NCBI GenBank assembly: GCA_964508365.1
Contig: CAZDTP010000048.1
Span: 1 to 32,448, forward strand
DNA: 32,448 bases
From: an uncultured archaeon
GTDB lineage: Archaea > Asgardarchaeota > Lokiarchaeia > Sigyniarchaeales > SOKP01
Direction: 5' to 3'
A model generated the notes under the pieces. It had not been told where the DNA came from. It was given only the letters and a program-made list of their open reading frames with translations, and searched no databases. Within the stretch, counting starts at the first letter, position 1. Every line of letters starts with the position of its first letter. Below, in pieces: positions 13,821 through 32,448 of the stretch. Both the position numbers and the translations under genes were made by a program.

Positions 13821-13866
13821 ATTAAGGAATGCTGATCCTAAGAAATTATCATAATTTTTTCTACAT

Positions 13867-14149: not shown

Positions 14150-14575
14150 TTAGAAATCTAACAATTTTAATATTTCAATGCATCTTTTTTTTGAAACTAA
14201 ATATTGAATCTTCTGGTCAATTTCAGAAATCGATTGACTTTTAAGTTTATACAAGATATTTTTTTCTTGCAAAGATAACTTTCCTGTATCGTATAAGACA
14301 AACTTTTCTAAAGCCTCGCCAGACTTATTAGATTTTCTTCTTAAATTATCTGCATTCCTTAAATCAAACCGATAAGTATATAAAACCCCGTTACCGAATT
14401 GTTTCTTGTATAAAATAGTATTTCCAAAATTATCCTTAACCAATTTTACTCCTTCCTCTAAAGATTCATATCTATATTTATTGTACATAGCGCAATTCCT
14501 ACATTTGATAATAAATTCTATATCTCCAGTCTGGTTTAAAGGTGTATTACATTGTTGACATACTAACATTGGCAT
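14150..14575 (-). CDS. Zinc-ribbon-containing hypothetical protein
   Basis: MPMLVCQQCNTPL...IKCRNCAMYN has two CxxC pairs. The ATG at 14575 is preceded by AAGGG; the track ORF starts at 14614. Confidence 0.65.
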   Translation of the reverse strand: MPMLVCQQCNTPLNQTGDIEFIIKCRNCAMYNKYRYESLEEGVKLVKDNFGNTILYKKQFGNGVLYTYRFDLRNADNLRRKSNKSGEALEKFVLYDTGKLSLQEKNILYKLKSQSISEIDQKIQYLVSKKRCIEILKLLDF

Positions 14576-14770
14576 CCCTTTTGTGAATGATTTATTCACA
14601 TAAATTTTCAACAAGTAATAATATAAACCCTTAGAATTTAAATTTTTGATAAGCGTATATTAACAGATTAATAATAGCAATTATTACTAAGAAAAAGAAG
14701 AGGATCTCAATATAGTCGAAGTAATTGACTTATATAAATTTATGGAATAAGAAATTAGTTTGTAGATTAA

Positions 14771-15454: not shown

Positions 15455-15494
15455 TATTAGAGCATAGAAGATAAGATTTGACCAAAGAATTAGT

Positions 15495-16190
15495 TTATTG
15501 AATAAGAGGAACTATCCTCAGCAACTCTTTTAATTTAAATTCCAAATAAACCACTCCAAATATAGATTCGACTAAAGTACCTTTTACATGTTCAACTGTC
15601 TCTTTTTTCATTTTCTCGTCTGGAATAATTTGCAAACGATGCAATCGAGAAGAATATAAACCCCACTCATCACAATAAATTGCCAAGTTCTCATTCGATG
15701 CTAATTTTTTTCTTTTTTCTGTTAATTCTCCTGTTTTTGAAAGCGAAGAATCCCACAATGTTTGGACTATAGCTAAATCGAGCGCAGCATCTCCAATTAG
15801 AGCAAGTACTACTGCAGCATCTCCAGAACTTGCCAATTCCATTAATTCTTCTTCGCTCAAGGGGCGATTTGGATCATCTTTGAAATGAGCATTAAGGTTT
15901 TCAAAGATGGTACGAATACTTGGTCGGGTTAAGGCAAGCATAATCATTTCAGGTGTCTGGAACTTCAAATGGAATAATTTTTCTAGCTTTAGAATGATAA
16001 TCTTTTCGATTTTTTCCATTTGTTCTAACATATGATTAAGCTCCCTCAAGTATCCAGAGAGAGGAGCAGTCCTCTCCTTTTGATGAGCTGGTAAGCTTTC
16101 TTTCTCCTGTTTCTCTCGTTCAATGTAATTTTTTAATAGTTTGGTTTTCTTAACTAATCCTACTGCATTCCACTTGAGTTTATCTTGCAT
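15495..16190 (-). CDS. RNase III catalytic-domain protein without dsRBD (Mini-III-like)
   Basis: LEKLFHLKF...LALTRPS, LALIGDAALDL, ASNENLA and GTLVESIFGVVYLE. The start MQDKL (16190) is preferred; the track ORF extends to 16349. Confidence 0.85.
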   Translation of the reverse strand: MQDKLKWNAVGLVKKTKLLKNYIEREKQEKESLPAHQKERTAPLSGYLRELNHMLEQMEKIEKIIILKLEKLFHLKFQTPEMIMLALTRPSIRTIFENLNAHFKDDPNRPLSEEELMELASSGDAAVVLALIGDAALDLAIVQTLWDSSLSKTGELTEKRKKLASNENLAIYCDEWGLYSSRLHRLQIIPDEKMKKETVEHVKGTLVESIFGVVYLEFKLKELLRIVPLIQ

Positions 16191-16448
16191 TTTTATCAAT
16201 CTACAATTAGAATTCCTATAGGTAGATATAACCATTCTCGTTTTTAAATAAATGTAAAATAGCTGAAAAAGGATATTTCCTATAATTTTTTTTTTTGCGA
16301 CTGGATATTCTTGTAATTCTTGTTTTAAAGATCCTGTAGTTCCCACCATCTCGGAATTAATGGTAGCTCCGAATATTTCTCGAGCTTGCGTTTCGTTGTT
16401 CGTATCATTGTCAAATAATATAGACTAACAAATTCGATCTTAAAGGAG

Positions 16449-17642
16449 TTATTCTCTAAATTTTCTTGAGAATATATCTTTCAGAAGATCTGTAAGTTTA
16501 TATAAAACTATATCTAGCAATGTAATTTCGATCTGTCTTCCTCTTTCTGCTTCTTCAATTCTAACAGTTTTAGATGCGATTATTTTTAGTTGGTTAAGTG
16601 TTCGGATGTATTTTTGAAAGCTCATTTTAACATGAGGTGTAATTGAGTATGTTTTACAGATTATCTGATACTCTTCAAAAGCATCATCTACAAGTATATA
16701 TGGTTCTTGTTTCTTCTGTAACGCCAGAGAGATTCCAAATAATGTAAATAGCTCGTGATCGTTTAATTGATCTACGATCTCTCCTCTAAAAGTTGGATAA
16801 ACTTCATTAGATGCAGCTCTGATAATATCGGCATTTATACTATCTAAACTTTCCCTATCGGCATACATACCGCTTTTTCTTAGGACCTCTATTCCGTGTC
16901 GAATATTTTCGTGATCTGTAGCTATTTGACTAATCATACTTAATATATCGTCATCAACAACATTTTCTTTAAACGCAAGGTCACTTCTATATTCTAAGAT
17001 TTTTCTCGTTTCTTCGAAATTATAAGGTTTGAGTTTAATTTTCTCGTTTAACCTACTTAAAATCCGTTCCGTTTCAATTGTAATCCACTCTTTATTTCTG
17101 GAAATTAATATTATCGAAAGTTTCGTGTTTTGTTGTCCAAAGGTTTCAGCAATATCTAAGAATGCTAATATTTCGTCAGATCTTAATAAGTGGACTTCAT
17201 CGATTATTAGCAACATATAACCTTTTTCTCGGATTAATTGCTTTAAAATAAGCTTGAGTGCTTCGTCATCCGAGAAGCCTCTACCACCACCATGAGTGTA
17301 TTTTGCTAGTAATTCTCGTATTATAGCTCCTTTATTTCGGAAAATTATGCAGTTATAATATTCAATAAAAATTTCTGTATCATTTTCTAAAGCTACTGTT
17401 TTAAAGTTTCTACCAAAATATCTTGCAGTACATGTTTTACCAAGTCCTCCCTTCCCCAAAATTAAACAATTTACTGATGGTTGCTCTTTTTCTTCAAGTA
17501 TCCGCCTAAAATTAAAGATAAGGTTTTTAATTGCTTCATCGCGACATAATACTTTTTCGGGAACAAAGCTAATATCCAGTGAACTTGCCAGTCTAAATAC
17601 TGAATTTGCCTTTAATATTTTTCTAAAATCATCCTCGTCCAT
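16449..17642 (-). CDS. cdc6: Orc1/Cdc6 family replication initiator
   Basis: FVPEKVLCRD, Walker A GKGGLGKT, Walker B LLIIDEVH, R-finger region RILSRL, and a C-terminal winged helix. Confidence 0.95.
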   Translation of the reverse strand: MDEDDFRKILKANSVFRLASSLDISFVPEKVLCRDEAIKNLIFNFRRILEEKEQPSVNCLILGKGGLGKTCTARYFGRNFKTVALENDTEIFIEYYNCIIFRNKGAIIRELLAKYTHGGGRGFSDDEALKLILKQLIREKGYMLLIIDEVHLLRSDEILAFLDIAETFGQQNTKLSIILISRNKEWITIETERILSRLNEKIKLKPYNFEETRKILEYRSDLAFKENVVDDDILSMISQIATDHENIRHGIEVLRKSGMYADRESLDSINADIIRAASNEVYPTFRGEIVDQLNDHELFTLFGISLALQKKQEPYILVDDAFEEYQIICKTYSITPHVKMSFQKYIRTLNQLKIIASKTVRIEEAERGRQIEITLLDIVLYKLTDLLKDIFSRKFRE

Positions 17643-17995
17643 AGCTACTCGATAATTTTTGATTTCTTAATATTTAATACTATTGAAAATATCGCAATTA
17701 AGTTTTGTTGAAAAACTTGAAATTATATTAGTAAATTTGCACTCTCTCCCTGGTCTCGTTTTTATGTTAGAGCTGATGTTTATTATCAGAAGAGGAGGTT
17801 TTATACTTTTTCAAAAAAAATGAGAAAAAGAATAACGTGAAAAACATTAAATCTTTTAGCTTGCTATTAGATGAGGTATATCGGTATAATATTTTATAAT
17901 TTTTAAGAAGGTGTGGATAAAAAATCCACGAAGCATATACAAGAATGTATTGAATTAAGAATTGGATAATTATCTATAATATGGAGAAGGAATAA

Positions 17996-18619
17996 ATGTC
18001 AGTGAAAGATTTTACTAGATCAACTCGGGATTTTTCAATTAATAGAAGATTTTTAATCATAAATGTAGTAAAAAAAATGGCAAGTAATGGAACTAAGTAT
18101 TATTTTCTTACCTTGAAAGACAATACGGGAAAATTGAATGCTAAGCGATTTACAAGTGGTGAGATAGAGTTTAGATCTTTAAATATTATATATTTAATTG
18201 GAAATTTTATCGAAATTGAGGGAATTTATCAATATAAATGGCAATCTATGAAAATTTTTACTGAAAAACTAATTGAGAGTGTTACAAAAACTCCGTCCGC
18301 TGAAGTTCAAATTGAACCTAAGGAGAATATCCTAATAGTATTAGCTCAATTAAAAGAGTTAATTAAAATAGGAACATATATTCAGCTTAAATCATACATT
18401 AATGATGTAATCGCATCATTTTTTCCAAATTTTAGCAACAGAAAGAAAAAACAACTGAATAAATCTTTTAAAAATGAAATAGAAAGCTGGCCTATAGAAA
18501 ATCAAGGAGATTTCTATATTGAATTCACCAAAACTTTGGAACGATACGAGAAAATGCAACCATCTAAATGGAAAAAATTGGGTTCTAATCTCCTTAAATT
18601 ATTATCTGTTATAAGATAG
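17996..18619 (+). CDS. OB-fold nucleic-acid-binding protein (YhaM N-terminal-like), paralog 2
   Basis: FLIINVVKKMASNGTKYYFLTLKDNTGKLNAKRFTSGE and C-terminal MQPSKWKKLGSNLLKLLSVIR; a clear paralog of 14771..15454. Confidence 0.7.
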   Translation: MSVKDFTRSTRDFSINRRFLIINVVKKMASNGTKYYFLTLKDNTGKLNAKRFTSGEIEFRSLNIIYLIGNFIEIEGIYQYKWQSMKIFTEKLIESVTKTPSAEVQIEPKENILIVLAQLKELIKIGTYIQLKSYINDVIASFFPNFSNRKKKQLNKSFKNEIESWPIENQGDFYIEFTKTLERYEKMQPSKWKKLGSNLLKLLSVIR

Positions 18620-18863
18620 ATATTAATTTAGTTAAACAAGGTTATTTTTTAAATCACAATTTAATTTTGATATCATACAATTGATGCAATAATTTTAAAC
18701 TGAGTTTAATCTCAAGTTATTTTCAGACAAAAAATTAAAATTTTTGTTCATTCTTTTAAATAGGAACCTCTATTCATTATTATCTAAAGCATTTGATAAT
18801 TAAAGTTAAATACATAATTTATTATAGATCTTAACGAAATCAAAAATTTTTACTCTCCAATGA

Positions 18864-19970
18864 ATGAAAGCTTTTAACAAGGATGAATTAAAAAGGGAGT
18901 TAGTTCAACTAGAAGGTTGGGATTCGATAGGAGATTATCTCAAAAATGTTTATTATGACCAACATACTGACACTCATGTTTTATTCTATAAAGACAAAAA
19001 CCGTCAGTTACACAAATGGTTTCTGAGAAGACTTATTAAAGGAGCATGGTCTAAAGACAAAGAGAACCCACAAAACATTCATATATGGATTCCTCCAAAT
19101 TCTTATTGGGTCTATCCTTTGGAATTAGAAGTGCCATCCCTCCTGCTGGATGAACATAAAGAGAATTTTATTAGTTTATATGGGATAGGAAGTTTTTTCG
19201 ATGAAAATAAACCAGACGACTGGATTAGCAACGATATTGATTTTATTGCTGTAGTCGAAAATTTTGATAATATATCAGAAGATACATATACCTCTTCTAG
19301 GCATAAGAAAATGTTTATCGAAGAGAAAGAAGTTTTTATCGCCTTCCATACCATTGAAACCTTAAACTCTAAAGAACTCTTTAACTCAGTTTCTTTTGCT
19401 AATTTTGAATGGGCTTTACAGGAAATAAAGCTTCCAGAAAACTCAAAATTGTTATTTGGTCAGGATATTAGGGAAAAAATCCCTGAACTCAACGAAATAG
19501 GTCATGACTATGAGGATATTCTTCGGCGAGTATTTTATCACATGGAAATGAGTTATAAGATGGAAGAAAAAAAGGATGAAAACAAATCCAAGAGCGAATT
19601 CACCAAGAGCATCTTTAAATTCTCTTATTATCTAAGTGTCTTATTTGATCCCGATTTTCATTATACATCAAGCATTAAATCGGCACTAAAAGTAAAGGAA
19701 TTGTCCGAGCAAGGAAAAATCGGCGGGGAAATGCCCGATTTTATTGAAAATTCTATTTTGTTTAGATGTAAAAATGTGTTTATCAAGGATTTTAAAGAGA
19801 AACGAGAGCAATTCCTTGATTATTTATTCTCAATAGCAAAGAACGGAGTTCTCCATAGAAAGTTAGATTATCAGGATTTACTTAAATACCTCAAAGATAC
19901 TTATGAAGGATTAAATCATTTAATCGCAAAATTGGAATTGAAAGAGTCTGAAGGACTCTTACGGTTTTAA
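18864..19970 (+). CDS. Pol-beta-superfamily nucleotidyltransferase with an N-terminal extension and helical C-terminal domain
   Basis: ISLYGIGSFF...SNDIDFIAVV fits the hG[GS]...DxD NTase signature, followed by a helical bundle (HEPN/substrate-binding-like). Confidence 0.7.
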   Translation: MKAFNKDELKRELVQLEGWDSIGDYLKNVYYDQHTDTHVLFYKDKNRQLHKWFLRRLIKGAWSKDKENPQNIHIWIPPNSYWVYPLELEVPSLLLDEHKENFISLYGIGSFFDENKPDDWISNDIDFIAVVENFDNISEDTYTSSRHKKMFIEEKEVFIAFHTIETLNSKELFNSVSFANFEWALQEIKLPENSKLLFGQDIREKIPELNEIGHDYEDILRRVFYHMEMSYKMEEKKDENKSKSEFTKSIFKFSYYLSVLFDPDFHYTSSIKSALKVKELSEQGKIGGEMPDFIENSILFRCKNVFIKDFKEKREQFLDYLFSIAKNGVLHRKLDYQDLLKYLKDTYEGLNHLIAKLELKESEGLLRF

Positions 19971-19982
19971 ACGGAAACGCTT

Positions 19983-20135
19983 TTAGCCTGTAAATAAGTC
20001 CATAAAAATCTCAGCCGGTACCTCCCAATAGATTAAAACTGCCCAAACTGCGAATATTACGCTTGCAAAATTAAGCCCAAGGAACAAAAAATACATCCCT
20101 ACAAAACATTTAACGACATATTTCCAATTTTTCAT
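19983..20135 (-). CDS. Small membrane protein (50 aa), not in the ORF track
   Basis: Hand translation MKNWKYVVKCFVGMYFLFLGLNFASVIFAVWAVLIYWEVPAEIFMDLFTG*; long hydrophobic core. Confidence 0.6.
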   Translation of the reverse strand: MKNWKYVVKCFVGMYFLFLGLNFASVIFAVWAVLIYWEVPAEIFMDLFTG

Positions 20136-20255
20136 TTCAATTCTTTTTATTACCTTAATCTATATAAAAAAAAAGATCAGGTTGAATCAAAATTATTATT
20201 TGATATTCAAATAGACTGACGCGTAAGTGCTCAAAATTATTTATAAATCAAATAC

Positions 20256-20867
20256 TTATTTTTGTATATCTGCAATGATAGCTAGAAACTCTTCACGCAA
20301 TTTCTCTTTACTGATAAAATGAGAATAATGGGTAACACATAAGATTCTAAATTCATCTTTGAGATTTTTACGTAAAATATCATAGCTGTCTTTTCCTAGA
20401 GCAATTAAGATTGGATTTAAAGCCCCAATATCACAGAGTTCTTGTTTGAAGGATGAGATATTTTCTTTGGTAAAATCGGGATTTTTTCGAAGAAAACTCA
20501 TTATCTTTCCAGATACTTTCTCTTCAAAATTTTTGATAATGTCTGTCATATACGCACCCCATAAAGGAGTTCCTTGCAAAGCATAGCGCGTCTTGTAATC
20601 TTGTGCGGCTGAATAATTAGGATGAAAATTCGCAAACGGGTGTTCAAATTTTCGGGAAATGTTTAAAGCAACAAGGACAATATTTGGCTTAAGAGTTTTC
20701 AGTAATTCCATACTTGGATTATCAAAGAATGATATATCTCCCATTCCCGATTTGGCTTTTTCGGTTGATTTCCATTCGTTCCAGATAGCCCAAGATGACA
20801 TATGTCCATATTTGTTCTTAATGTTCTGAAATTTTTCGTAACTGACATTAGGGATATGTTCACTCAT
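20256..20867 (-). CDS. Uracil-DNA-glycosylase-like superfamily protein (divergent)
   Basis: Motif order NIVLVALNIS / GAYMTDIIK / ILIALGKD / CVTHYSH parallels the UDG-fold motifs. Confidence 0.6.
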   Translation of the reverse strand: MSEHIPNVSYEKFQNIKNKYGHMSSWAIWNEWKSTEKAKSGMGDISFFDNPSMELLKTLKPNIVLVALNISRKFEHPFANFHPNYSAAQDYKTRYALQGTPLWGAYMTDIIKNFEEKVSGKIMSFLRKNPDFTKENISSFKQELCDIGALNPILIALGKDSYDILRKNLKDEFRILCVTHYSHFISKEKLREEFLAIIADIQK

Positions 20868-20924
20868 TATTGAATTAATTTAATATTTAGAATATTTCAA
20901 ATTTGTGCAAAAAAGTCGAAATTA

Positions 20925-21173
20925 TTAAATTATGAGTTTATCGAAAAAGAGTTCTACCTTTTTAACGAGCAAATCTAGGCAGTTAGGATCACTCCACTCT
21001 TCTCCGGAAAGAAGCCCTTCCATTTTAGCTTCTAATTGTAAACCGTATTTGGCAACAACGCAAAACATTTGGTCTTGTAACTTAGTAAAATCCTTACAAC
21101 CTTTAATTTCATTGAGCGCTTCTTGCTTTAAGAACTCTCTTGCTTGGTCTTTTGTGAATTTGCAACTATTCAT
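20925..21173 (-). CDS. Small hypothetical protein
   Basis: 82-aa ORF co-oriented with its neighbours; plausible helical composition. Confidence 0.6.
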   Translation of the reverse strand: MNSCKFTKDQAREFLKQEALNEIKGCKDFTKLQDQMFCVVAKYGLQLEAKMEGLLSGEEWSDPNCLDLLVKKVELFFDKLII

Positions 21174-21462
21174 CGTAATAAAAGATTAGAGCAATAAACA
21201 TAAACTCTAGCAGAGTAACAAATTTTTAAAAATCTTATCATTTGATTTATTTGGAAAGGCAGTAAGTGAAGAAAAAGTTCCGAAAATAAAACCACCTGTA
21301 AGGAAAACTAAACCTTGGGAAAAAAAGAATAGTAAATTGCATATGACAAGAATTTAAAGAAGACGCTACAGTATTGTTGCAGTTTATATAAAATCAAAAG
21401 ATATTTAAAAATATTGTTAACATGTATATCATAACAATGGATAAAAAAAAGGTAGAAATTTA

Positions 21463-22157
21463 ATGTCTTATTTTGAAGGCGATTTTGGACAAGGAGTACT
21501 TGAAGCACTTAGAATTGCTAAAAAACATTTAATTAAAAGGAGTGATATGCACTGTCGGTTAATTGGGTAGAAGTTTATCAGTTAATTAAAACAATTGGTT
21601 CTGATATTAAAAAACATTACAAAGAAAAATATACAAAAGAACTTATTCCTTATATTGACGCTCTAGATATCAAAGAGAAAAATAAAGTTATAATAAAGAA
21701 GAATGTAGAAAATTTTATCAATGCAATAAGTAAATACGCGAAGGAAATCATGAAGTTAACGAATGATGATATTTCCAAATTAGCTAAATTTGATGCACTA
21801 TTCGATCTACTCCAGAATCCTGAGAATGATACTGTAGACGATGATATCAAAGAGGAATTGGGCGATGGTAGTATCTTTGATTATGCTCTTGGTAAGGATA
21901 TCCCAATAAAGGATATTTTTGATCTCTATGAGCAAACCCCTAAGAAGATTAGGTATAAATACTATGAACTAAACAATGACATGTGGAGCGATCTCATGGA
22001 AACTATGAAGAGAGCGCTTGGTAACATTAACCACTATTATAATGTTTATGAGTTAACAGATGATGTTTCTAGGATTTTCAATGATCAATTTATTAATTAT
22101 GTACTCGAAGGTTTAGATGTCGCTTCAATAGTAGGAGAAAAAAAAGAAAAAAATTAA
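21463..22157 (+). pseudogene. Hypothetical gene interrupted by one -1 frameshift near 21546 (or two coupled ORFs)
   Basis: ORF 21463..21570 (MSYFEGDFGQGVLEALRIAKKHLIKRSD...) overlaps a frame that is open from 21546 through the track ORF 21750..22157, adding 68 codons. Confidence 0.65.
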
Positions 22158-22322
22158 AAGAAAAAAATAGTAGATAATGATTTATTTTCTTAAGAGGCGT
22201 TTCTGGACAACAAAGTGGGTTCTTAACGGCGAACTGTGAGGAAAGATGGCTTTTATTGCCCGATCGTTGTTAGCCCAAATTGAAGTACCTTCAAAGTAAA
22301 AGAAAAAAAAACCCATTAGCTT

Positions 22323-22670
22323 TTAGCTCAAAAAATGATATCCTTGATTCGGCGAACCACCAGTAAAAAGGGATATAATGCCTGCTGGGTCTCCAAGAAC
22401 AAGTCCTATAACTAACAACATAATTCCCACCATTATTAACTTGGATCGCTTGATAATAATCCCACCAAGTAAAATAACGACCCCAAAAATAAGGGAATAT
22501 TGGCCAATGCTTTGTAGTGGTGTCAAGCTCGAACTGATGAGGTATCTAAAATTGCTCCCAAAATAAGGAAAGACAAACAAAAGAAATACGACGAAGCCTA
22601 ATAAAATCCACAAGACTTTAGAACTCTTCCTTCTCCCTCCTATTACTACCTTTTCCCTCCTACGGCTCAT
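22323..22670 (-). CDS. Small integral membrane protein (about 3 TM, basic N-terminus)
   Basis: MSRRREKVVIGGRRKSSK followed by three hydrophobic segments; preceded by an AGGAGGGG SD-like site. Confidence 0.8.
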   Translation of the reverse strand: MSRRREKVVIGGRRKSSKVLWILLGFVVFLLFVFPYFGSNFRYLISSSLTPLQSIGQYSLIFGVVILLGGIIIKRSKLIMVGIMLLVIGLVLGDPAGIISLFTGGSPNQGYHFLS

Positions 22671-22686: not shown

Positions 22687-23346
22687 CTAAATGACTTTTA
22701 TAGAAGCGTGTGAAAAAACTTCTAACTCTTGAATATCGAAATTAACGTACTTATTTTGGGGGATAATATTCACTAGAAAGTGTAGAGTCAACATGTATAT
22801 CATCACAATTAAAAACGATATCCCCGAAAGTAACATCATTATCGAAACGTAATTAACATGTAAAGCTAATAAGGAACTGACCCCTATATAAGTGAATAAC
22901 ATACCAACTCCTAGAAATAACCAAAGACTTACGAATTCTCTCCTCTCGTGGGTATTATTAATCAATCTAGTGTACTCCTTCTGCAAAACGCTATTATTTT
23001 CATAAATACAATTTCTACATAAAATTTGATCGATCCTTAAAATTGTATTACTCCTAAAAGTAAGGTTTCTACATTCCCTAAGTTCTACATCGCCGATAAA
23101 ACAATTTTCAATTACAATGTTTTGGGAACCTGCTATTGAAAGCTTAGAAATAGTAAGATTCTTCAAAACAAGATAGACTCCTTCGATAAATATCGAAATT
23201 TCTATAGTTACGTCCCCTAAATCATCGATTACAATAGGCGAATCCTTCGTTCCTTCTCCATTAAATCCCAAGATATTCTTTAAATTCTCTATCGTTCTTT
23301 TTCTCAACCTATACTTTATACTTTTTTTATTCAACATTTTTAACAA
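22687..23346 (-). CDS. Membrane-anchored protein with a parallel beta-helix (NosD/pectin-lyase-like) region
   Basis: GEGTKDSPIVI motif, then repeated NIVIENC / NLTFRSN / NCIYENN strands and two C-terminal TM helices. Confidence 0.65.
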   Translation of the reverse strand: MLKMLNKKSIKYRLRKRTIENLKNILGFNGEGTKDSPIVIDDLGDVTIEISIFIEGVYLVLKNLTISKLSIAGSQNIVIENCFIGDVELRECRNLTFRSNTILRIDQILCRNCIYENNSVLQKEYTRLINNTHERREFVSLWLFLGVGMLFTYIGVSSLLALHVNYVSIMMLLSGISFLIVMIYMLTLHFLVNIIPQNKYVNFDIQELEVFSHASIKVI

Positions 23347-24183: not shown

Positions 24184-25071
24184 TTGTTAGATGTTTGCTA
24201 TCATTGCAACTCTATTTATATCTCTGAAATAAGTTCTGGGTATGTGTGTAGAACTTGTGGAACAGTTCAGCAATTGTTAAAATTTGAATCTAATACCCCA
24301 TTCAATGAGATACAATTTCGAACCCCTATTATTAAAAAAACTACAATAGGAAATGAAGGAGAACGAAAAATGGCTTCAGATGGTGGAAAGATGCAAGTTC
24401 TTAGTAAATTAGATGCAATTATACCATATAGCGAAAAAGTCTTGAACAGAGCCTCCTCTTTAGCTGATACAATCCTTGAAAAGCTAGGGCGATCAAAAAA
24501 AGACAGTTCAATAATTCTAAGGAAATTCATAGAAATTCTTCCTTATATCCCTTCTGGAACCACATTTCGGAACCCTGAGAAATGTATTCCATGCATTATC
24601 TATTTTCAGTATAAAGAAATGAATATCGTTATAGATTTAAACATGTTGCTTGAAATTTCAGCGATATCAAAATCTGATTTAAAGGAGTTTAGAAAGCGGA
24701 TGTGGCTATTTTGGCCGGGTTATGAAACGAGAGATCGTAAAAAATATATTCTTACAAAAATAGGGAGCGTTACAGGTTATGGAAAGCTATACAAACAATC
24801 AAAAAATATACTAGATAAATTTTGGGAAATAATTAAAGATTCTAAAGACGAAATATTGGCTGGTTTAGTGATAGGAATATCAATAACGCTTTCTAAAAGC
24901 AAACAACTAACTCTAAGGTCGATAAGCAACTCCTTAAATATTAGTCAGAGCTCGCTTCAAAATTCAATTCAAAGGAAATTGTTTGATCGCTTAGGTATCG
25001 AAAATAAGCTAAAAGGATTTAAAAAGCGGGTTGAATTCTTAGAAGAAAGAGGCTTCTTTAGGGATGAATGA
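24184..25071 (+). CDS. Divergent transcription factor B (TFB/TFIIB)-like protein
   Basis: N-terminal Zn ribbon CYHC...GYVCRTCGTV, TTIG linker, cyclin-like repeat (TFRNPEKCIPCIIY) and C-terminal HTH TLRSISNSLNISQSSLQ; 295 aa; TTG start. Confidence 0.8.
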   Translation: MLDVCYHCNSIYISEISSGYVCRTCGTVQQLLKFESNTPFNEIQFRTPIIKKTTIGNEGERKMASDGGKMQVLSKLDAIIPYSEKVLNRASSLADTILEKLGRSKKDSSIILRKFIEILPYIPSGTTFRNPEKCIPCIIYFQYKEMNIVIDLNMLLEISAISKSDLKEFRKRMWLFWPGYETRDRKKYILTKIGSVTGYGKLYKQSKNILDKFWEIIKDSKDEILAGLVIGISITLSKSKQLTLRSISNSLNISQSSLQNSIQRKLFDRLGIENKLKGFKKRVEFLEERGFFRDE

Positions 25072-25181
25072 GAAATGTGGATAAAAAATATCTTTTCCGA
25101 ATTTAATACTTTTTTTTGTTTTAAATAAAACTAGCTTATTAGTTTAGTAAGACTAAATAAATATTTTTAGAAAAGTTAACA

Positions 25182-25940
25182 ATGTTTGAAGAAATCATAT
25201 TTATGGTAGGTTTTGCGGTATTTTCAACAATTGCATCATACATTTGTTTAAAATATGCGCCCAATCCATTATACGCGATTTTTCGATGTATCGCCGTTGT
25301 TGGCATCATAATCCACGAACTTTCTCACGCTCTAATGTGTGTGGTAACCAACACTCGCATACGGACCATAAAATTACTAGAACGTTCAGATGGCAAGTCG
25401 GCTTTTGGTTTAAATTACGGAGGCAGAGTTGAATTGAAAGATTACGTCAGATTGTCGTTTTTACAAGCGTTGCTAATCGGCTTTGCACCCATTTATATTT
25501 CCTTTTGGCTTTTTTTCTTTTTATGGGGGCAATTAAAAACTCCAGGTCTAGATGTTCTAATTTTTTATGTTTATATTTTTGTTATGTTGTCGTTAGTATT
25601 AAGTGCTGCACCTTCATTTGCGGACATAATAGCGATATTCGGAGCGTTTCATTTTGACTGGAGATATTCCTTGTATCAAAGTGGTTTATCATTGCTATCA
25701 ATAACCACCGTTTGGCTTGTTGTTACCAATTACCAAATTAAAATTTTTCACGAAATTGTAACTTATGTATTAATTTTCGTAGGATATTACGGATATAGAA
25801 TTGGATTTAAAGGATTGAAGGGTTTGTATTCCCTTTTCTTTGCTAGGGGAAGTAAAAATAGAACAAAATATATGAAGCCAAAAGCTTTAACTCGAAGACG
25901 CTTTAAACACGCTAAAAATGAGAGAGAGGTTCAATGGTAA
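25182..25940 (+). CDS. M50-like (site-2-protease-type) membrane zinc metallopeptidase
   Basis: IIIHELSHALM (HExxH within a TM segment), GFAP, distal AAPSFAD Asp motif, and multiple TM helices. Confidence 0.85.
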   Translation: MFEEIIFMVGFAVFSTIASYICLKYAPNPLYAIFRCIAVVGIIIHELSHALMCVVTNTRIRTIKLLERSDGKSAFGLNYGGRVELKDYVRLSFLQALLIGFAPIYISFWLFFFLWGQLKTPGLDVLIFYVYIFVMLSLVLSAAPSFADIIAIFGAFHFDWRYSLYQSGLSLLSITTVWLVVTNYQIKIFHEIVTYVLIFVGYYGYRIGFKGLKGLYSLFFARGSKNRTKYMKPKALTRRRFKHAKNEREVQW

Positions 25941-25963
25941 ATTTTAAAAGAGGAAATTAGTAA

Positions 25964-27910
25964 ATGGAAATAGTGGGATATCAAGCAAAAATTAATATAA
26001 CGCAGGTTTTACCGTGTGTAGAAGAAAAAATAATCGGAAATCAAGAATTTGCGTTAAAACGGTTAATAAATGCTTCGTGGTTATATGATCCATTTGGAGA
26101 TAATTTGACTTATGGAGTAGAATTTGGAATAGGAAAGTATTTTTCTTGGGAATTTTATCTTTTTGCTGAAACTGTCGAAATGGCAGAAGAATTAGGAGGA
26201 GCCTTACTATATAATTTGCAAGAGAGGTATAGAGGATTGGATGGGCAAATGAGCGTGTATCCACTTTACTCAGAGTTTTTAGACATTAAGAGAAGCCTAT
26301 ATGAGCTAATTCTTCCCTCTAATCCTCCGTTAAAATTGCATTTTCTTAGGAAGATAATCAATTATTATAAAACACCTCAAAGAAAAATGGATGCAACCGT
26401 CTTTATTGTATGGAAAAGAGACGATTTACATGCAAGTCCCGATCCACTCAAATTTATGCTTAGAACTTTCGTTACTTTGAACCCCAATCCAGATTTCTCT
26501 ATGGATTTAGAAGAACGGGAATTAAAAACAAACGCAGTCTTAAGATACTTCGTTTCTGATATGTCTATACCGCCTTATCAGAAAGCAAAACATGATCTAG
26601 TGCCTCCAATTTTTTGGAGGAACGTTTTAACCACTGATGTGTTTCCCGAGAAACCCGAATATGGCCAACTACCCAGAGAGTTTATGCCCAATTATATTAA
26701 ACCTCATTTGATCGATTTCGATATTCCTCCTGAAATGCCTTTGTCAAAACCACCTATACTAGAAAACAGAAATACCGTCAATTTGGCGATTGATTTCAAT
26801 GATCCTAATTACGTATATGTCGGAACTAAAATGAACAAAGGAGTTTTAAGCACCGAATCAGGATTAATAGCAATAGATAGTCTTACTACCCATTTGAATA
26901 TTTTTGGAAAAACTGGGACGGGAAAGTCGACCTTAATAAAAATTCTGTTGCATCAGATACATAAGAAAAGACCAGATATTGGAATATTGATTCTAAATTT
27001 TGCAAAGCCCTATTTGGAAGACGATTATCCTATGGCCCATGTTTATAAGTTTCCATCTGAAAAATTTAGAGTACCTTATATTACACCTTTTGATAGAATC
27101 ATGATCTCGATTAAGGAATCGAGTAATGTTTTTGCTGCCTGTTTAGGATTAAAATATCTTGGACCAGGAATATTTTCTGAAACACTTCAACGTTGCTATT
27201 CAAAATTCAATAAATTTCCAGTAGATATTAAAGAATTCTTTAACTGTGTTGATGATAACATGAAAACAAAGTCTTGGGAACCAGAATTCAAGCAACATGT
27301 TCGTGCTACGTTCAAACGAAGGATTAATGAATTATTTTATAGAGAAGATCTTGAAGCTACGCTAAATCTCCTTGATGGTGCATGGAAAAATATTCCAGAG
27401 TGGTTTAAAAAATGGAAGGAAGGAGGAACCGTCTTAATTGATTTAACAAAGTGTCTAGAGGAGGAACAGCATTTAATTGGTATGTTGATTTTAACTATGA
27501 TTGAAAATTTGATTCCTATTGATAAAGAAAAATCAAATAGATTGAAATATCTCTTGATGTTAGATGAAGCTCATCGAATTTTAGGTAAACCAAGCGATGG
27601 ACACCCCGAATCTCCTGAATTCATAATGAAAGATAAAACAAATTCAATATATAAAAGAATTACACAAGAATCTAGAGCTAAAGGTTTAGGAATCATTACT
27701 GCTGATCAACACGCTCATTTGCTTCATAGTATCGCGATTGATTCAGCACGGACAAAAATTTTGTTCCAATTAGGATATCCAAGTAATCAGATTTTCACCG
27801 GAATAATGAACGAGCGAGAAATGTTATTAACACTTCAAGAAAGGTATGCTTTAGTCATAACAAACACTGAACGGTATTTATTGAGAACGGTAGATGATAA
27901 AATCCCCTAA
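25964..27910 (+). CDS. HerA/VirB4/FtsK-superfamily ATPase (DUF87-like) with an uncharacterised N-terminal domain
   Basis: THLNIFGKTGTGKSTL (Walker A), LLMLDEAHRIL (Walker B), and ESRAKGLGIITADQ (Arg finger and Gln motif). Confidence 0.9.
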   Translation: MEIVGYQAKINITQVLPCVEEKIIGNQEFALKRLINASWLYDPFGDNLTYGVEFGIGKYFSWEFYLFAETVEMAEELGGALLYNLQERYRGLDGQMSVYPLYSEFLDIKRSLYELILPSNPPLKLHFLRKIINYYKTPQRKMDATVFIVWKRDDLHASPDPLKFMLRTFVTLNPNPDFSMDLEERELKTNAVLRYFVSDMSIPPYQKAKHDLVPPIFWRNVLTTDVFPEKPEYGQLPREFMPNYIKPHLIDFDIPPEMPLSKPPILENRNTVNLAIDFNDPNYVYVGTKMNKGVLSTESGLIAIDSLTTHLNIFGKTGTGKSTLIKILLHQIHKKRPDIGILILNFAKPYLEDDYPMAHVYKFPSEKFRVPYITPFDRIMISIKESSNVFAACLGLKYLGPGIFSETLQRCYSKFNKFPVDIKEFFNCVDDNMKTKSWEPEFKQHVRATFKRRINELFYREDLEATLNLLDGAWKNIPEWFKKWKEGGTVLIDLTKCLEEEQHLIGMLILTMIENLIPIDKEKSNRLKYLLMLDEAHRILGKPSDGHPESPEFIMKDKTNSIYKRITQESRAKGLGIITADQHAHLLHSIAIDSARTKILFQLGYPSNQIFTGIMNEREMLLTLQERYALVITNTERYLLRTVDDKIP

Positions 27911-27960
27911 TTCAATGATATATAAATTGTTACATTAAAAGCAGAGGTTTTAAAATAAAA

Positions 27961-30900
27961 ATGGGTTTTGGAAGCGAAATTGAAGACGATGAGGGATATT
28001 TAGGCGAACTGAAAGAAGAAGACGGAGAGGAAAAAGAAGATGATCTTAGTGATGATTCTGAATTAGGGGAAGAAAAAGATTTTGAAGACGATCGAATTAA
28101 TTGCGAGGAACCTGAAGATGATTTAGGTCAAGAATTATCAGAAGAAAAAGAAGAAGCTTTATGGGACGAGATCGATTGGAACGAAGATTTGCAAGGTGAG
28201 AGAGAAAAAACTATATGGGACGAGATCGATTGGAACGAAGATTTGTATGGCGAGCGAGAAAAAACTATATGGGACAAGATCGATTGGAACGAAGATTTGC
28301 ATGGCGAGCGAGAAAAAAATGTGATAGACAAAAATGACGATCAAAACGAGAAATACAATAAAGAAGATTATGTCGAAAATGTTGAATCGCAATCAATTTC
28401 AACAATTTTAGCTACTGAAATGGAAGAAATAGAAGATCAGATGGAACACCAGGAACATGAAGAAATCGAGATTCCCCCCGAAGAATATCAGGACGATACG
28501 GGACCAAATGTAAATGCCGACGAGATTGAATTCATAAAGGATGTTGAAAAAATGGCTGAATATGCCAGAGAAACAATAGGAGAAGACGAAAATGTTGAAC
28601 CGCAAGCTGAAAAAGAAAATGCGGCGTATTATGCCGAGCAATATTACAAAAAATTAAAGGAAAAAGAGGTAGAAAACGATCAAAATAGTAAAGAGGACCA
28701 AGAAATCGAAGAACATAAGCAAGAAGTAACAGAGGAATTTAAGAACATGGAGGATATAAATGAGACATCTAAGGAAAACATGAGTCCGGAAGAATTTGAA
28801 TATTTATGGAATGTTCGCGAAGAATTAGATCGAGAAGGAAAGTCCGATAAAGAGATAAAAGAAATAATGCACGAAGCGGAAGAGATGTACAAAACGCTTA
28901 AAGAAGCAGAAAAAGTATATGAAGAGCAACAACAAGAGAAATTAAACCTAGTTGATCACGAAGATGAAGCAAGCATAGAGGATCTAAAAGAAGATTTAGA
29001 TAGAGTAGATTTAATAGAGCAAGCTGTTGAATTGGAAGAGAGTTTGATTCAACAAGGGAAATTACAAGAAGAAATAGATGTGAAGGTAGAGAAAGCCATA
29101 GAAAGAACTGAATTTGAAGAAGAACTAGAAAAATTACATAAAGAGCAAGAACAGGAGAAATTGAAGCAGGAAAGTCTCGATCATGAAGAGAATATAGGCA
29201 ATCTAAAAGAAGATTTGGATAGAGTAGATTTAATAGAGCAAGTAGTTGAATTAGAAGAAAATTTAGCTCAACAAGGAAAATTACAAGAAGAAATAGATGT
29301 GAAGGTGGAAGAAGCCATAGAAATGGCTGAGTTTCGTGAGGAAATAGAAAAATTACATGAAAACCAAGAACAGGAGAAATTAAAACAAAATAATCACGAA
29401 GACGGAGAGAACTTTGAAGATTTAAAAGAAGAGATCGATCGACCAGCGGAAGCAGAGTATTATATGGAGAAAGCAGAGGAGTTGCATCGACAAGGAAAGT
29501 CCCAAGAAGAAATCAATGAGCAAATGGAAGAAGTAGTTAGCAATTATCAAAAGGAAATAAATAAAAAACAAGAAAAAGAAGAAGAACCGAATGTAAATGA
29601 AGAAATTGAAAAGCAAGATTTAGAGATTAATGAAAAAAATTCAAGTGCGGAAAACCGCTATAAAATTGAACAATCCTCTACCTTACACAATGAAAAGAAA
29701 GCAAAAAATTACGAAAATGTTGAGAATAAAGAAAAATTAGAAGTGTTAAAACTAGAATTAGATACTATCGAAAGCGAATCCGAAAATAAGAAAGAGTTGC
29801 TTGAAGAAGGTTCAAAGTTAACAAGTGAAGAAACTGACGAAGAGGAGAATGAACATCTTCAAGAATTATATCGCCAACAAACGGACAAGAGGCCGATATA
29901 TGCTAAAAAAAGAACAAAAGGCTATATCCAATGGTTAGAACAACGAGAACTAGATTTGGAAAAGATTAACAATTCTCAAAGCGAAAATGAATCAAAAAAA
30001 GAAATTGAAGAAGAAGATTGGGAAATAACCCTTAAAAAATGGATTAAAGAGGCTTCTGAGGATGAATGCAGCGCTGAACTTAAATCTGAGTTAAAAATAG
30101 CCCTTGAGAGATATAACGAGTTCGATTATTTGACTAGAAAGTTTATGGAATTATTTGAAAAGTCTCAATACGAAAAACTCTCTGAAAAAGAAAAGAATAG
30201 AATAAAATCTTTGACAGAAAAACTACAGAAGATCGATCCGATCCAATTAGAACTTTTAGCAAATATTCGTGCTATTAAAAAATACATCATCGAACAATAT
30301 GGGTGGGATTCTATGAACAGATTTCTTGATTATCGAGTGCGTAACAGGTTTTTTACGCATGTCTCGCAGAAATATGATCTATGGAGTTCAAATAAAGTTC
30401 GCATGGTCTCCCCCAGTTCTTTCACTAACGATGAATTGGAGTTTTATAAAAGAAAAAAAATTGATCTTTCTAAAATTAAGACTCGTTGGGCATGGGTTAA
30501 AAACAAACAAATAGCTGTGGAGTTTTACAAGGAAGTAATATTGCCAAAATTTGACAATGTACCTAAAGCTCATGACATGGATGGTTTAGGGTACAGAGGA
30601 TTTAGGTCATCTATTAAAAAATTAGGATTAGGGGTCAATGATCTAACTAAAGCTGCGGGTTTTAACCCATACCATGAAGAAAGGTATACTGGTATGAATT
30701 ACGATGAACTATTGAAATTTTTTAAGGAAAACGTGTATCCTGAAGTAAAAAATAAGCTAAAGTTGAAAATAGGTGAAGCACCCGGAGCAGGTTATTTAGA
30801 GAGGAAAGGATTAGGCTATAGAGGGTTTGTTGACAGAGTAAGAATAGTCTCAAAGTTGGAAGGGATAAAAAGGAATATCTGGGCTGAATTTGTAAAAAAA

Positions 30901-32037
30901 GTGGGTCTGGAACCTCTAAAGGATTTAAAATATCGAGGTATGGATTTCGTTGAGTTAATGGATTTATTTGTCAAAAAAATATATCCTAATTTAAAGGAGA
31001 AATACAATTTAGATCATAAACAAGCTCCTTTTAAAGAGCAAGTTGATAAGGAATATAACGGATTTCGCAAAGCGATAAGAAGATTAGGTTATAAACTTTC
31101 TGACTTATATATCGCACTTGATTTTAAACATAAATTTTGGCAGATATATCATAATAAATCATATAAAGAACTCCTTAACTTTTTTAAAGATATAATACAA
31201 CCATCATTACAGGATATTTATGACTTTTCTGAAACTGAGGCTCCTTCTTATGAGGAGGTTGAAATTAATTATCGTGGCTTTATTGAGGCTCTTAATCGTC
31301 ATGGAAAGAAGCTTTCGGATGTTATTAATAATTTAGGGTATATCCCCCGAAAATTTTCTAATATAGGAGTTATTACTCATGCATTAATGAATTCATTATT
31401 ATCTTATTATATAAACGATAAAAATTTCCTATCAAATTATTATTCTGAAGTAGAATTGTTTTCTTCTTCTAAGCACAGAATTGATGGTTTCATGTTTGTA
31501 ACTCCATCCCTTATTTCTTTTTTTAGAAAGCATATCACAAAACTATATCCTAAAATAAATAATAAAAAAGAGAGAGAGGAAATCTTATTATTATTAAGGA
31601 AAATAGAGGGGAAACAACATTTATTAATTGATTTTTCAAATGGATTTTTCAAGAGAAGCAAAATAAATTCAGAAATTATTGCAATTAAGGCAAAGAAATA
31701 TCTTGATTATCCCAGCTCGTTTTTAATTTTGATTGGAACAAATTGGAGCAATGTGGAATTAAGTAAAAGATTACCCACCTCGATAAAATATAAGGACTCT
31801 TATTATACTACAAAAGATGTAGCTTTAATAAGTCCAGAATTATTTGGAATTCTATTAGGAATAAATAGTCCCTATAAAGATTATTTAAATAATATTATCT
31901 TATACAATAAAAATGAAGATATAGATAAGTTACAAGATATAAATAAATCACTAGAGAGAATAAAAAATCTTAATTATTTTAGCACAGAAGAATTTAATAA
32001 AATAAAGCAAAATAATACACTGATTAGGTGGCTTTGA
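27961..32037 (+). CDS. Giant acidic repeat protein with C-terminal helical repeats and a putative PD-(D/E)xK-like nuclease
   Basis: 1358 aa. The N-terminal half is Glu/Asp-rich with 18-aa and 73-aa repeats. Four ~65-80-aa P..GYRGF..G repeats follow, then SEVEL...HRIDGF...LLIDFS. Confidence 0.75.
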   Translation: MGFGSEIEDDEGYLGELKEEDGEEKEDDLSDDSELGEEKDFEDDRINCEEPEDDLGQELSEEKEEALWDEIDWNEDLQGEREKTIWDEIDWNEDLYGEREKTIWDKIDWNEDLHGEREKNVIDKNDDQNEKYNKEDYVENVESQSISTILATEMEEIEDQMEHQEHEEIEIPPEEYQDDTGPNVNADEIEFIKDVEKMAEYARETIGEDENVEPQAEKENAAYYAEQYYKKLKEKEVENDQNSKEDQEIEEHKQEVTEEFKNMEDINETSKENMSPEEFEYLWNVREELDREGKSDKEIKEIMHEAEEMYKTLKEAEKVYEEQQQEKLNLVDHEDEASIEDLKEDLDRVDLIEQAVELEESLIQQGKLQEEIDVKVEKAIERTEFEEELEKLHKEQEQEKLKQESLDHEENIGNLKEDLDRVDLIEQVVELEENLAQQGKLQEEIDVKVEEAIEMAEFREEIEKLHENQEQEKLKQNNHEDGENFEDLKEEIDRPAEAEYYMEKAEELHRQGKSQEEINEQMEEVVSNYQKEINKKQEKEEEPNVNEEIEKQDLEINEKNSSAENRYKIEQSSTLHNEKKAKNYENVENKEKLEVLKLELDTIESESENKKELLEEGSKLTSEETDEEENEHLQELYRQQTDKRPIYAKKRTKGYIQWLEQRELDLEKINNSQSENESKKEIEEEDWEITLKKWIKEASEDECSAELKSELKIALERYNEFDYLTRKFMELFEKSQYEKLSEKEKNRIKSLTEKLQKIDPIQLELLANIRAIKKYIIEQYGWDSMNRFLDYRVRNRFFTHVSQKYDLWSSNKVRMVSPSSFTNDELEFYKRKKIDLSKIKTRWAWVKNKQIAVEFYKEVILPKFDNVPKAHDMDGLGYRGFRSSIKKLGLGVNDLTKAAGFNPYHEERYTGMNYDELLKFFKENVYPEVKNKLKLKIGEAPGAGYLERKGLGYRGFVDRVRIVSKLEGIKRNIWAEFVKKVGLEPLKDLKYRGMDFVELMDLFVKKIYPNLKEKYNLDHKQAPFKEQVDKEYNGFRKAIRRLGYKLSDLYIALDFKHKFWQIYHNKSYKELLNFFKDIIQPSLQDIYDFSETEAPSYEEVEINYRGFIEALNRHGKKLSDVINNLGYIPRKFSNIGVITHALMNSLLSYYINDKNFLSNYYSEVELFSSSKHRIDGFMFVTPSLISFFRKHITKLYPKINNKKEREEILLLLRKIEGKQHLLIDFSNGFFKRSKINSEIIAIKAKKYLDYPSSFLILIGTNWSNVELSKRLPTSIKYKDSYYTTKDVALISPELFGILLGINSPYKDYLNNIILYNKNEDIDKLQDINKSLERIKNLNYFSTEEFNKIKQNNTLIRWL
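28162..28323 (+). repeat. Intragenic tandem repeat, 3 x 54 bp
   Basis: Units start at 28162, 28216 and 28270 and encode WD(E/K)IDWNEDL(Q/Y/H)GEREK(TI/NV). Confidence 0.95.
28981..29550 (+). repeat. Intragenic tandem repeat with a 219-bp (73-aa) period
   Basis: Units start at 28981, 29200 and 29419 (DLKEDLDRVDLIEQ...QGKLQEEID). The first two are highly similar and the third is degenerate. Confidence 0.9.
30484..31350 (+). repeat. Four degenerate protein-level repeats (HEAR-like)
   Basis: Pattern Y..M.Y.EL..FFK..I.P......AP......(GL)GYRGF...L...G...D....GF/Y recurs at about 30484, 30682, 30928 and 31144. Confidence 0.8.
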
Positions 32038-32448
32038 GACTTACTAGCTTTTCAAGTAGGAAAAGTGCTCCTTTTTTATCAAGGGGTTCATTTCGATTTC
32101 CACAACGACTAGACATAATACACGCAGGACAGCCATTTTCAGTTTTACAGCTACAAGTTTCAATTAATTTCAAAGCCAAATGGAGTAAATCTATTAAATG
32201 AAGATACAATTGTTCAGAGATACCTATACCTCCTCTATATGCATCGTAAACATAAATAACGGGTTGCTGCTTAACGGGGTCAAAATCTATAGAAACACCT
32301 CCTAAATCCCACCGCGAGATTTGAGCTAGTGCTGGAGCCATTGCGATCATAGCGTGTTCAACAGCGTGAATGGTCCCCCCTAGATTGAATCCTTTCAATT
32401 CTAGCTCTTTTTGGTATTCAAACGGAATTCCAAACCAAACAGCTTGAG
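32024..32448 (-). CDS. C-terminal DUF1998 part of a DEAD/DEAH-box helicase (Hrq1/YprA/MrfA type), partial
   Basis: GGTIHAVEHAMI, VYDAYRGGIGISEQL and CSCKTENGCPAC...C. The frame stays open to the window edge (QAVWFGIPFEYQKELEL), so the gene starts outside the window. Confidence 0.9.
   Translation of the reverse strand, partial: QAVWFGIPFEYQKELELKGFNLGGTIHAVEHAMIAMAPALAQISRWDLGGVSIDFDPVKQQPVIYVYDAYRGGIGISEQLYLHLIDLLHLALKLIETCSCKTENGCPACIMSSRCGNRNEPLDKKGALFLLEKLVSLKAT

Follow-up and report, generated by a model that had tools for sequence, protein, structure and literature searches.

Homing endonucleases are known to be encoded by free-standing genes, some of them in cassettes that also bring a replacement end for the invaded host gene; examples are the seg and mob genes of phage T4 and the gene-end cassettes of fungal mitochondria. 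Here we describe a locus on contig CAZDTP010000048.1 (G000:C48) of a Loki-type Asgard archaeon; the whole contig of 32,448 nt was analysed and is referred to as the window. Its part from ~22.3 to 32.1 kb is, in our judgement, probably a homing-type, integrase-less and site-specific mobile element, and a member of a family of ~7- to 15-kb elements of Loki-type Asgard archaea. The likeness to the free-standing homing genes lies in the site-specific presence or absence, the lack of an integrase and the nuclease families involved (LAGLIDADG, GIY-YIG and PD-(D/E)xK), as well as in an occupied allele that is recoded at the presumed target and an element-borne gene end that keeps the host gene intact. 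However, the elements described here differ in that the nuclease is the C-terminal tip of a protein of 1.3-1.7 kaa (thousand amino acids) with a hyperacidic region of ~650 aa, in that the ~10-kb unit also encodes an ATPase of HerA type, membrane proteins and, in many cases, a TFB, and in that long and short carrier proteins exchange their tips as cassettes.

Among Asgard elements, the aloposons of Heimdallarchaeia combine tandem giant proteins of 3,000-6,000 aa with a MinD/ParA-like ATPase and target tRNA genes (Wu et al. 2022, PMC8813620). They share with the present elements the very large proteins, an upstream block that includes an ATPase, and site-specific insertion directly downstream of the giant gene. 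In contrast, the elements described here encode one giant only, of 1.3-1.7 kaa, have an ATPase of HerA type and target protein genes, which sets them apart by the published description. No relation in sequence to aloposons was noticed, although a direct comparison with their proteins was not made. No tRNA genes were detected in the window. A preliminary description of this DNA, made from the sequence alone, had proposed an undescribed system of four genes; its gene calls hold, and the module is indeed recurrent. No description of the module was found in the literature searched, where aloposons and TFBs borne by viruses or mobile elements are the nearest concepts, and the element family is apparently undescribed.

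As the preliminary description had stated, the four genes are co-oriented and separated by 110, 23 and 50 bp, with open reading frames (ORFs) at 24184-25071, 25182-25940, 25964-27910 and 27961-32037, all on the + strand. The AGAGG motifs it had noticed before the last two genes are likewise in place, one at 25949-25953, 11 nt before the ATG of the ATPase gene, and one at 27943-27947, 14 nt before the ATG of the gene for the giant protein. Over the whole window AGAGG occurs 59 times as compared to 47 +/- 6.6 copies expected, that is, without enrichment. Judged from the copies in genomes G004 and G063, the core element appears to extend over about 22.3-32.1 kb. Its features and those of the adjoining host gene are as follows (TM, transmembrane; AF2, AlphaFold2).

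22323..22670, - strand: element-associated 115-aa protein with three TM segments (hydropathy scan); approximate left end of the core element
22687..23346, - strand: element-associated 219-aa membrane protein (TM segments at aa 138-197)
24184..25071, + strand: predicted divergent factor of TFB/TFIIB fold, with a Zn ribbon (CYHC...CRTC) and two cyclin-like helical domains (AF2 model, Foldseek)
25182..25940, + strand: multi-pass membrane protein with HExxH, possibly an M50-like metallopeptidase (motifs, hydropathy scan)
25964..27910, + strand: P-loop ATPase of the HerA/FtsK superfamily (DUF87) with a family-specific N-terminal domain of ~290 aa (Pfam, PDB profile search)
27961..29895, + strand: aa 1-645 of the giant protein, hyperacidic (D+E content of 27-47% in stretches of 100 aa)
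29881..30375, + strand: giant protein aa 641-805, adaptor domain shared with short-form proteins, with the tip-swap junction at its end
30376..31350, + strand: giant protein aa 806-1130, four helical repeats of ~70 aa with a GYRGF motif (all-helical in AF2; the repeats align in A2)
31351..31866, + strand: giant protein aa 1131-1302, nuclease-like domain of PD-(D/E)xK fold (VIA-align wide search)
32024..32113, - strand: element-borne replacement 3' end of the host DUF1998-type helicase gene, overlapping the stop codon of the giant's gene by 14 nt
32114..32446, - strand: body of the host helicase gene (MrfA/DUF1998-like Zn-binding C-terminus; orthologue comparison), cut by the contig end

The element lies within an insert between an AOR gene and the helicase gene, and this site was compared among genomes of the genus, 35 of 41 of which possess an orthologue of the helicase (63-94% identity). 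In nine genomes of the same genus the 3' ends of the helicase and AOR genes abut, the spacer being 12-32 bp in G008 and G011, and the window holds 27.4-27.5 kb at this position. In an alignment with the empty-site genome G011, DNA identity is 91% on both flanks, as far as position 4626 (the AOR stop codon) on one side and from 32114 on the other, with sharp breakpoints at 4626/4627 and 32113/32114. The second breakpoint lies inside the helicase gene, whose last ~25-29 codons are recoded in the window and travel with the insert. Indeed, comparison of 28 genomes showed that the identity of the helicase tail to that of the window follows occupancy of the site rather than the body of the gene. The closest empty-site genomes are 88-95% identical in the body but 60-62% in the tail, whereas the occupied genomes G014 and G035 reach 77% and 71% in the body and 89% and 85% in the tail. 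Tails of the type SSRCGNRNE go with occupied sites and those of the type SPKCGNNND with empty ones. In G028 and G035, the insert has the displaced original helicase tail at its far end (E 1.5e-9 and 2.5e-7, respectively).

The same site also harbours a short form. In G007 and G035, a 215-aa ORF and a P0040-type protein of ~829 aa with the window-type tip are located between AOR and helicase; in G028 and G014, the short form abuts the helicase end, and no AOR gene was seen beside it. No match to the ATPase was obtained in G028, G014 or G035. These arrangements are consistent with a scenario in which the tip of the giant protein would cut the empty target, that is, the last ~25 codons of the DUF1998-type helicase gene where it abuts the AOR gene, and recombinational repair would then copy the element into the cut site. 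As the element brings along a recoded gene end, the host gene would stay intact and the occupied allele would no longer be a target. One further allele was seen at L044 (G016:C8), where the AOR/helicase site is empty, yet the helicase has an element-type tail (SSRCGNLND; tail 80% and body 73% identical to the window). This could be the footprint of element loss or a cleavage-resistant allele.

The giant protein P0004 (1358 aa) was compared with its homologues. Its acidic and adaptor parts are 50-87% identical to the giants of G004, G029 and G005, and this similarity ends at aa ~806. Behind this position P0004 is 85-92% identical to the short-form protein P0040, resident at the same site in G028. 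P0040 (830 aa) is the best relative of the tip, with 86% identity over the tip, and has a Zn-finger N-terminus instead of the acidic region. With 60-87% identity to other giants up to aa ~805 and a short-form tip thereafter, P0004 is a chimera. Swapping of C-terminal domains, which the preliminary description had raised as the signature of polymorphic toxins, was thus confirmed among the giant homologues, with the junction at aa ~806: the giant of G029 carries a LAGLIDADG tip (LAGLIDADG_3, E 4.6e-13) and that of G004 a GIY-YIG-like segment (visible GIVY...IQIG; similar to a Pfam-positive GIY-YIG protein), and the tips in G019 and G005 share the PD-(D/E)xK-like domain. New targets may be gained in this way, through recombination of the tip at the fixed junction with resident free-standing short-form nuclease genes.

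The type of tip is associated with the insertion site. The P0004-type tip occurs at the AOR/helicase site in five genomes, in giant and short forms alike. A GIY-YIG tip is found at a site in the gene for ribosomal protein S8, both in G004 (giant) and in G003 (short form, tip 39% identical), and the related tips of loci L026 and L030 are located in G019 and G005 at one site, which lies between convergent genes of G000 C16. The S8 and C16 sites are empty in G000, and for all three sites precise empty and occupied alleles exist among related genomes. The G004 copy is a clean insert of 9.8 kb in the 5' end of the S8 gene, which is uninterrupted in G000 C35. Here, 69 bp of the gene start are duplicated, the element-side copy keeping the ATG and the remnant reading ATA. 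A further insertion is that of a 518-aa GIY-YIG-like gene between two neighbours whose spacing in G000 C5 is 28 bp. For the LAGLIDADG copy of G029 the comparison is uninformative, as the corresponding place in G000 C9 holds an unrelated 439-aa ORF. Two side observations concern sites and tips. In G005:C67, two copies of the same flanking gene end (L030 1-235 and 1762-2009) with a 327-aa gene between them lie beside a 15-kb element, which suggests tandem or nested insertions at one target. In G017, a segment resembling the GIY-YIG-type tip (G017:C74:47357-48220) forms part of an open frame with a reported length of 13,771 aa.

A serious rival, as it would leave the same duplications, is an integrative plasmid or provirus of conventional kind, which would use an unrecognised recombinase (an ORFan or the giant itself) for att-site recombination; the ATPase would then serve as motor in packaging or conjugation, and the membrane proteins would be parts of a virion or transfer apparatus. 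Indeed, the direct target duplications (69 bp at S8; the helicase tail remnants) look like attL/attR, and the profile of the ATPase matches the packaging ATPase B204 of STIV as well as phrog_7035. Virus-encoded TFBs are moreover known from Asgard mobile genetic elements (MGEs; bioRxiv 10.1101/2021.07.29.453957). We nevertheless consider this explanation unlikely. Tyrosine or serine recombinases are absent from C48 (PF00589 matches on C17 only, PF00239 nowhere in the genome), the PHROGs scan revealed no capsid or other virus hallmark apart from phrog_7035 and a Walker-A match, and relatives of the ATPase were detected neither in IMG/VR (peptide-pattern scan) nor in phage records; plasmid records yielded generic DUF87 cores alone (22-25% identity). 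Furthermore, sites and duplications are shared by the two-gene short forms, in which the nuclease-tipped protein is the sole candidate enzyme, and the tips belong to classic homing-endonuclease families. The preliminary description had offered, as one of three readings, an integrative DNA-transfer element with its own TFB. This came closest, in that the locus is probably mobile; however, it is integrase-less and appears to insert by means of a site-specific nuclease.

The giant protein itself had been described as a repeat protein with a C-terminal nuclease. Repeats and a restriction-endonuclease-like fold were indeed recovered, but no family match was obtained in Pfam, NCBIfam, PHROGs or PADLOC. 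At the nucleotide level, the hyperacidic region contains tandem repeats of 54 bp and 219 bp; it also has conserved islands (aa 139-236) that are kept even beside ATPases that are just 26% identical. Compared with the short forms over their aa 117-277, the adaptor shows 17-33% identity. AF2 modelled the last 553 aa (pLDDT 85) as helical repeats followed by an alpha/beta domain. The helical repeats are presumed to be a DNA-reading array; relatives of the tip other than P0040 add an RNase_T exonuclease, and in P0058 and P0059 this enzyme is joined to repeats of the P0004 type. While Foldseek against PDB returned nothing at E <= 0.001 for the 553-aa tip model, an exhaustive VIA-align search gave, for model residues 325-496, a nearly uniform list of PD-(D/E)xK folds (Z 4.2-6.2), including McrC, Can2, Card1, AF1548, R2 RLE, Bax1, NucS and many restriction enzymes. 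Motifs conserved in A2 are YYSE(1163), RID(1175)G, LLID(1224)FS and RKxxKY. The conserved pattern is E, D and (D/E)-x-(S/T), with D1175 and D1224 (D or E in relatives) kept and the RKxxKY helix following, and all members have Ser or Thr at the Lys position. An exhaustive HMMER search with the tip of the window identified no more than 42 relatives in a set of 1.84 billion representatives.

A giant that keeps its N-terminal part but varies in C-terminal nucleases swapped at a fixed junction, with membrane proteins and an ATPase as neighbours, would also suit a polymorphic-toxin export module, another reading of the preliminary description, in which the giant would be a secreted nuclease-tipped effector, with the HExxH protease for its processing and the ATPase for its transport. 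We hold this to be very improbable. The hydropathy scan of P0004 detected no signal peptide and no TM segment, and host genes rather than an immunity gene follow downstream (the convergent helicase gene here, ribosomal protein genes in G004). Moreover, the tips are sequence-specific nucleases of homing type that track the insertion site.

The arrangement of the genes is not due to chance. Conservation of the neighbourhood in Asgard genomes, which the preliminary description had named as a check, was found in other loci. In G004:C109 all four genes and the two upstream membrane-protein genes are syntenic and 70-80% identical (the 115-aa gene 51%), and three of the four genes recur in each of four other loci. 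These are G017:C53, G021:C191 and G061:C68, with TFB, HExxH protein and ATPase, and G000:C126, a second copy in the same genome with the order HExxH protein, ATPase (28% identical) and acidic protein. The copy in G063:C152 is devoid of the TFB, and those in G019 and G005 have a 1,270-aa TM protein in place of the HExxH protein. The set of four is not obligate: copies may do without the TFB or the HExxH protein, and the constant pair is the ATPase and the downstream nuclease-tipped protein. The 115-aa gene is 89% identical in G063:C152 and C75 and always has the 219-aa gene adjacent to it; the latter is 70% identical in the G004 element, has no match in Pfam, and is distributed patchily over the genus (15 of 41 genomes), with multiple copies.

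The ATPase falls into two deeply diverged types (about 26% identity) that stand beside flanks 54-89% identical, which indicates that the modules are shuffled. Its profile finds relatives in 62 of 150 genomes of the order and in 14 of 24 genera, with up to seven copies per genome and many fragments with stop codons. Some copies have unusual companions. In two loci with the second ATPase type (L025 8389-10569 and L078 7352-9739) the downstream protein is non-acidic and Lys-rich, with FKPTL-type repeats, and the one in L078 still ends in an L026-like tip. An accessory domain like that at G000 C1:60429-60920 is present in three copies, L078 2000-2956, L030 13406-14626 and L080 11402-15493, in proteins of 318, 406 and 1363 aa.

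For the ATPase P0003 (648 aa), a HerA/VirB4-like enzyme had been proposed. Membership in the DUF87/HerA group stands above the Pfam cut-off (PF01935, E 1e-9, 39.3 bits as compared to a cut-off of 23.2), and the Walker motifs are intact (A, GKTGTGKST at aa 315; B, LLMLDEAH at aa 530), but the family level of VirB4, coupling or Ced ATPases is not reached (CedD 21.1 vs 600, VirB4_CagE 17.8 vs 643, TraD 12.3 vs 521 bits). With conjugative coupling, VirB4 and Ced ATPases it shares the FtsK/HerA-superfamily motor at a membrane in company of a DNA-processing protein, and weak matches to CedD, VirB4 and TrwB; it differs by scores of about 20 bits against cut-offs of 590-640, and no pilin, relaxase or other transfer genes were recognised. 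Its relatives are named 'DUF87 domain-containing protein' in the source records and stem from Promethearchaeota and marine sediment. We also considered P0003 as the housekeeping HerA and rejected this. Contig C48 contains no nurA, mre11 or rad50, so that the neighbourhood named in the preliminary description as incompatible with a separate system does not apply; NurA of this genome is encoded on C2, and the best DUF87 gene, which scores higher than P0003, is located on C10. The NCBIfam model HerA_Thermprot gives P0003 15.4 bits as compared to a cut-off of 800.

The profile search against PDB placed HerA 4d2i on top (1.3e-5), followed by HerA proteins of defence systems (8wiv, 8xau) and by STIV B204, and in PADLOC the ATPase matched mad8 (1e-14) and several defence HerA models. 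Thus, an antiviral module of HerA-type ATPase and nuclease within a variable island, the remaining reading of the preliminary description, has to be weighed. The tips would then be exchangeable effectors, associated with sites through recombination with homing genes already resident. Defence systems commonly swap their effectors, and the island also holds NYN, LRR and Cdc6-like genes. However, the matches concern the generic P-loop core and remain far below family level (NCBIfam HerA_antiphage 20.8 vs 800 bits), and partner genes of those defence systems are not present. As compared to HerA-NurA and the HerA defence systems (Sir2-HerA, DUF4297-HerA, MADS mad8), the locus likewise has a DUF87/HerA-clade ATPase beside a nuclease, but it differs in the N-terminal domain of the ATPase, in the company of or fusion to membrane proteins, and in the swappable site-specific tip on a giant acidic protein. 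The defence reading leaves unexplained the recoded host gene ends, the S8 insertion, the polymorphism of empty and occupied sites, the multi-copy and decayed copies, and the presence of the same tip with and without the ATPase at one site. We regard it as improbable.

In the loci covered by the hydropathy scan, the ATPase is accompanied by membrane proteins, and a variant in G017:C78 (L027 9502-12339) has an additional N-terminal domain of about six TM segments fused to it. This company and this fusion suggest a membrane-linked translocation role rather than resection of the HerA-NurA type. ATPase-variant frames of 944-945 aa are also present in G065:C27 and G081:C75. The fusion in G017:C78 was considered as Rosetta-stone evidence for a pairing of ATPase and HExxH protein and was discarded, since its TM domain is not homologous to the latter. 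Returning to the homing-type element, the ATPase, the HExxH protein and the small TM proteins probably form a translocation device for element DNA and/or the acidic protein, which is the least supported step of the proposed mechanism. A bolder version, in which a membrane-associated HerA/FtsK-type motor, docked onto the HExxH protein and the small TM proteins, would thread the ~650-aa polyanionic, DNA-like region, possibly along with element DNA, and so deliver a programmable homing nuclease to another cell or compartment, strikes us as quite unlikely. A complex prediction for the ATPase and aa 125-250 of the giant scored 0.00, which has no bearing either way.

The remaining two proteins had been assigned as a TFB paralog and an M50 peptidase. 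For P0001 (295 aa), the assignment is borne out by the fold alone. The AF2 model (pLDDT 71.8) retrieved exclusively TFIIB, TFB and Brf among its top 35 Foldseek matches in PDB, and it superimposes on the Pyrococcus TFB core 1ais_B with TM-score 0.75 and an rmsd of 3.4 Å over 193 aa, whereas there was no match to a TFIIB-family Pfam model at E <= 1, none in NCBIfam, and nothing in a profile search against PDB sequences. The C4 ribbon (CYHC, aa 5-8; CRTC, aa 22-25) is invariant across 18 homologues. Only 35 homologues were found, each at least 50% identical, and P0001 is predicted from the model to be a very divergent TFB. The gene starts with TTG and has an in-frame TGA (24154-24156) where homologues encode MKTKVNG, that is, seven more residues; hence, the N-terminus of P0001 is slightly shortened or the start unusual. 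The TFB probably drives transcription of the element. Mobile elements with a TFB homologue of their own are also represented by the Asgard virus WyrdV1 and the MGEs 10H_0/7H_42 (bioRxiv 10.1101/2021.07.29.453957), from which the present case differs by a TFB too divergent for Pfam and by the lack of a wyrdvirus capsid or pI-like ATPase in PHROGs and Pfam searches.

In P0002 (252 aa), the M50 assignment is in part retained. The protein has about five to six hydrophobic segments by hydropathy scan and invariant residues H45-E46-x-x-H49, P144-S145-x-x-D148, H190-E191 and a C-terminal QW. The sequence H45-E-L-S-H49 lies inside a hydrophobic segment, as is the case for the HExxH of M50 peptidases in a TM helix, and P144-S-x-x-D148, also in a hydrophobic segment, resembles the NxxPxxxLDG-type motif of M50 without matching it. 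However, the Pfam M50 scores stay below cut-off (PF13398, E 0.012, 15.8 vs 26 bits; PF02163, E 0.022, 14.5 vs 27.2 bits), and a profile search against PDB gave no match. The nearest named Atlas cluster is M50B (score 0.85), which serves as a lead only. P0002 may thus be called weakly M50-like.

Our interpretation starts from gene identities, synteny, empty and occupied sites, replacement gene ends, tip swapping and the association of tips with sites, and from these we infer cleavage, homing and the role of the ATPase. Several points weigh against the homing-type element. The match to the PD-(D/E)xK fold is modest (Z 4.2-6.2), and the canonical Lys is replaced by Ser/Thr; variants at this position also occur in BamHI and BglII. 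The association of tips with sites relies on two to five genomes per site, all of them relatives, and duplicated target ends such as the 69 bp at S8 and the helicase tail remnants are also expected from att-site recombination. On the left side of the window's insert, no remnant of the original helicase tail was found and no internal repeat of either the AOR end or the right end of the window, and the left border at ~22.3 kb is inferred from other copies. Finally, the S8 gene downstream of the element in G004:C109 (L022 5639-6057) reads as two ORFs of 50 and 65 aa, so that this copy may be damaging, with a frameshift or stop in an essential gene, or the assembly may be in error.

The rest of the 27.5-kb island between AOR and helicase is listed here as one further feature.

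4627..22322: remaining island with LRR, NYN, RNase III-like and Orc1/Cdc6 genes and ORFans (Pfam assignments)

It contains two large LRR proteins, one NYN nuclease, one RNase III-like gene, one Orc1/Cdc6 gene and many ORFans. Its genes are missing from the 9.8-kb copy of G004, and these 17.7 kb are probably other cargo or older insertions outside the core element. Homologues of the LRR genes and of w20925 are also present beside the two small membrane-protein genes in G063:C75, and the AOR/helicase site therefore looks like a hot spot that accumulates mobile cargo. The ORFan at 18864-19970 was considered as an element gene and rejected; it belongs to a broader family with a paralogue on C18 of the same genome and does not track the element. 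A 248-aa ORF right after the AOR gene (5162-5908) has a weak HNH_2 match (E 0.015) and could be another small nuclease gene.

If our interpretation is true, a mobile-element family that inserts without an integrase would be widespread in Loki-type Asgard genomes, given the 62 of 150 genomes of the order. Its members would invade even essential operons, such as that of ribosomal protein S8, repair the gene into which they insert, and change target through an exchange of nuclease cassettes. This would represent a new architecture among homing elements and would help to explain variable islands and assembly breaks in Asgard metagenome-assembled genomes. The elements would also be a natural source of modular nucleases with long targets, and would feature a membrane-linked HerA-type motor with an unusual polyanionic partner. 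Finally, the divergent element-borne TFB would open a way to study the use that mobile elements make of eukaryote-like transcription machinery.

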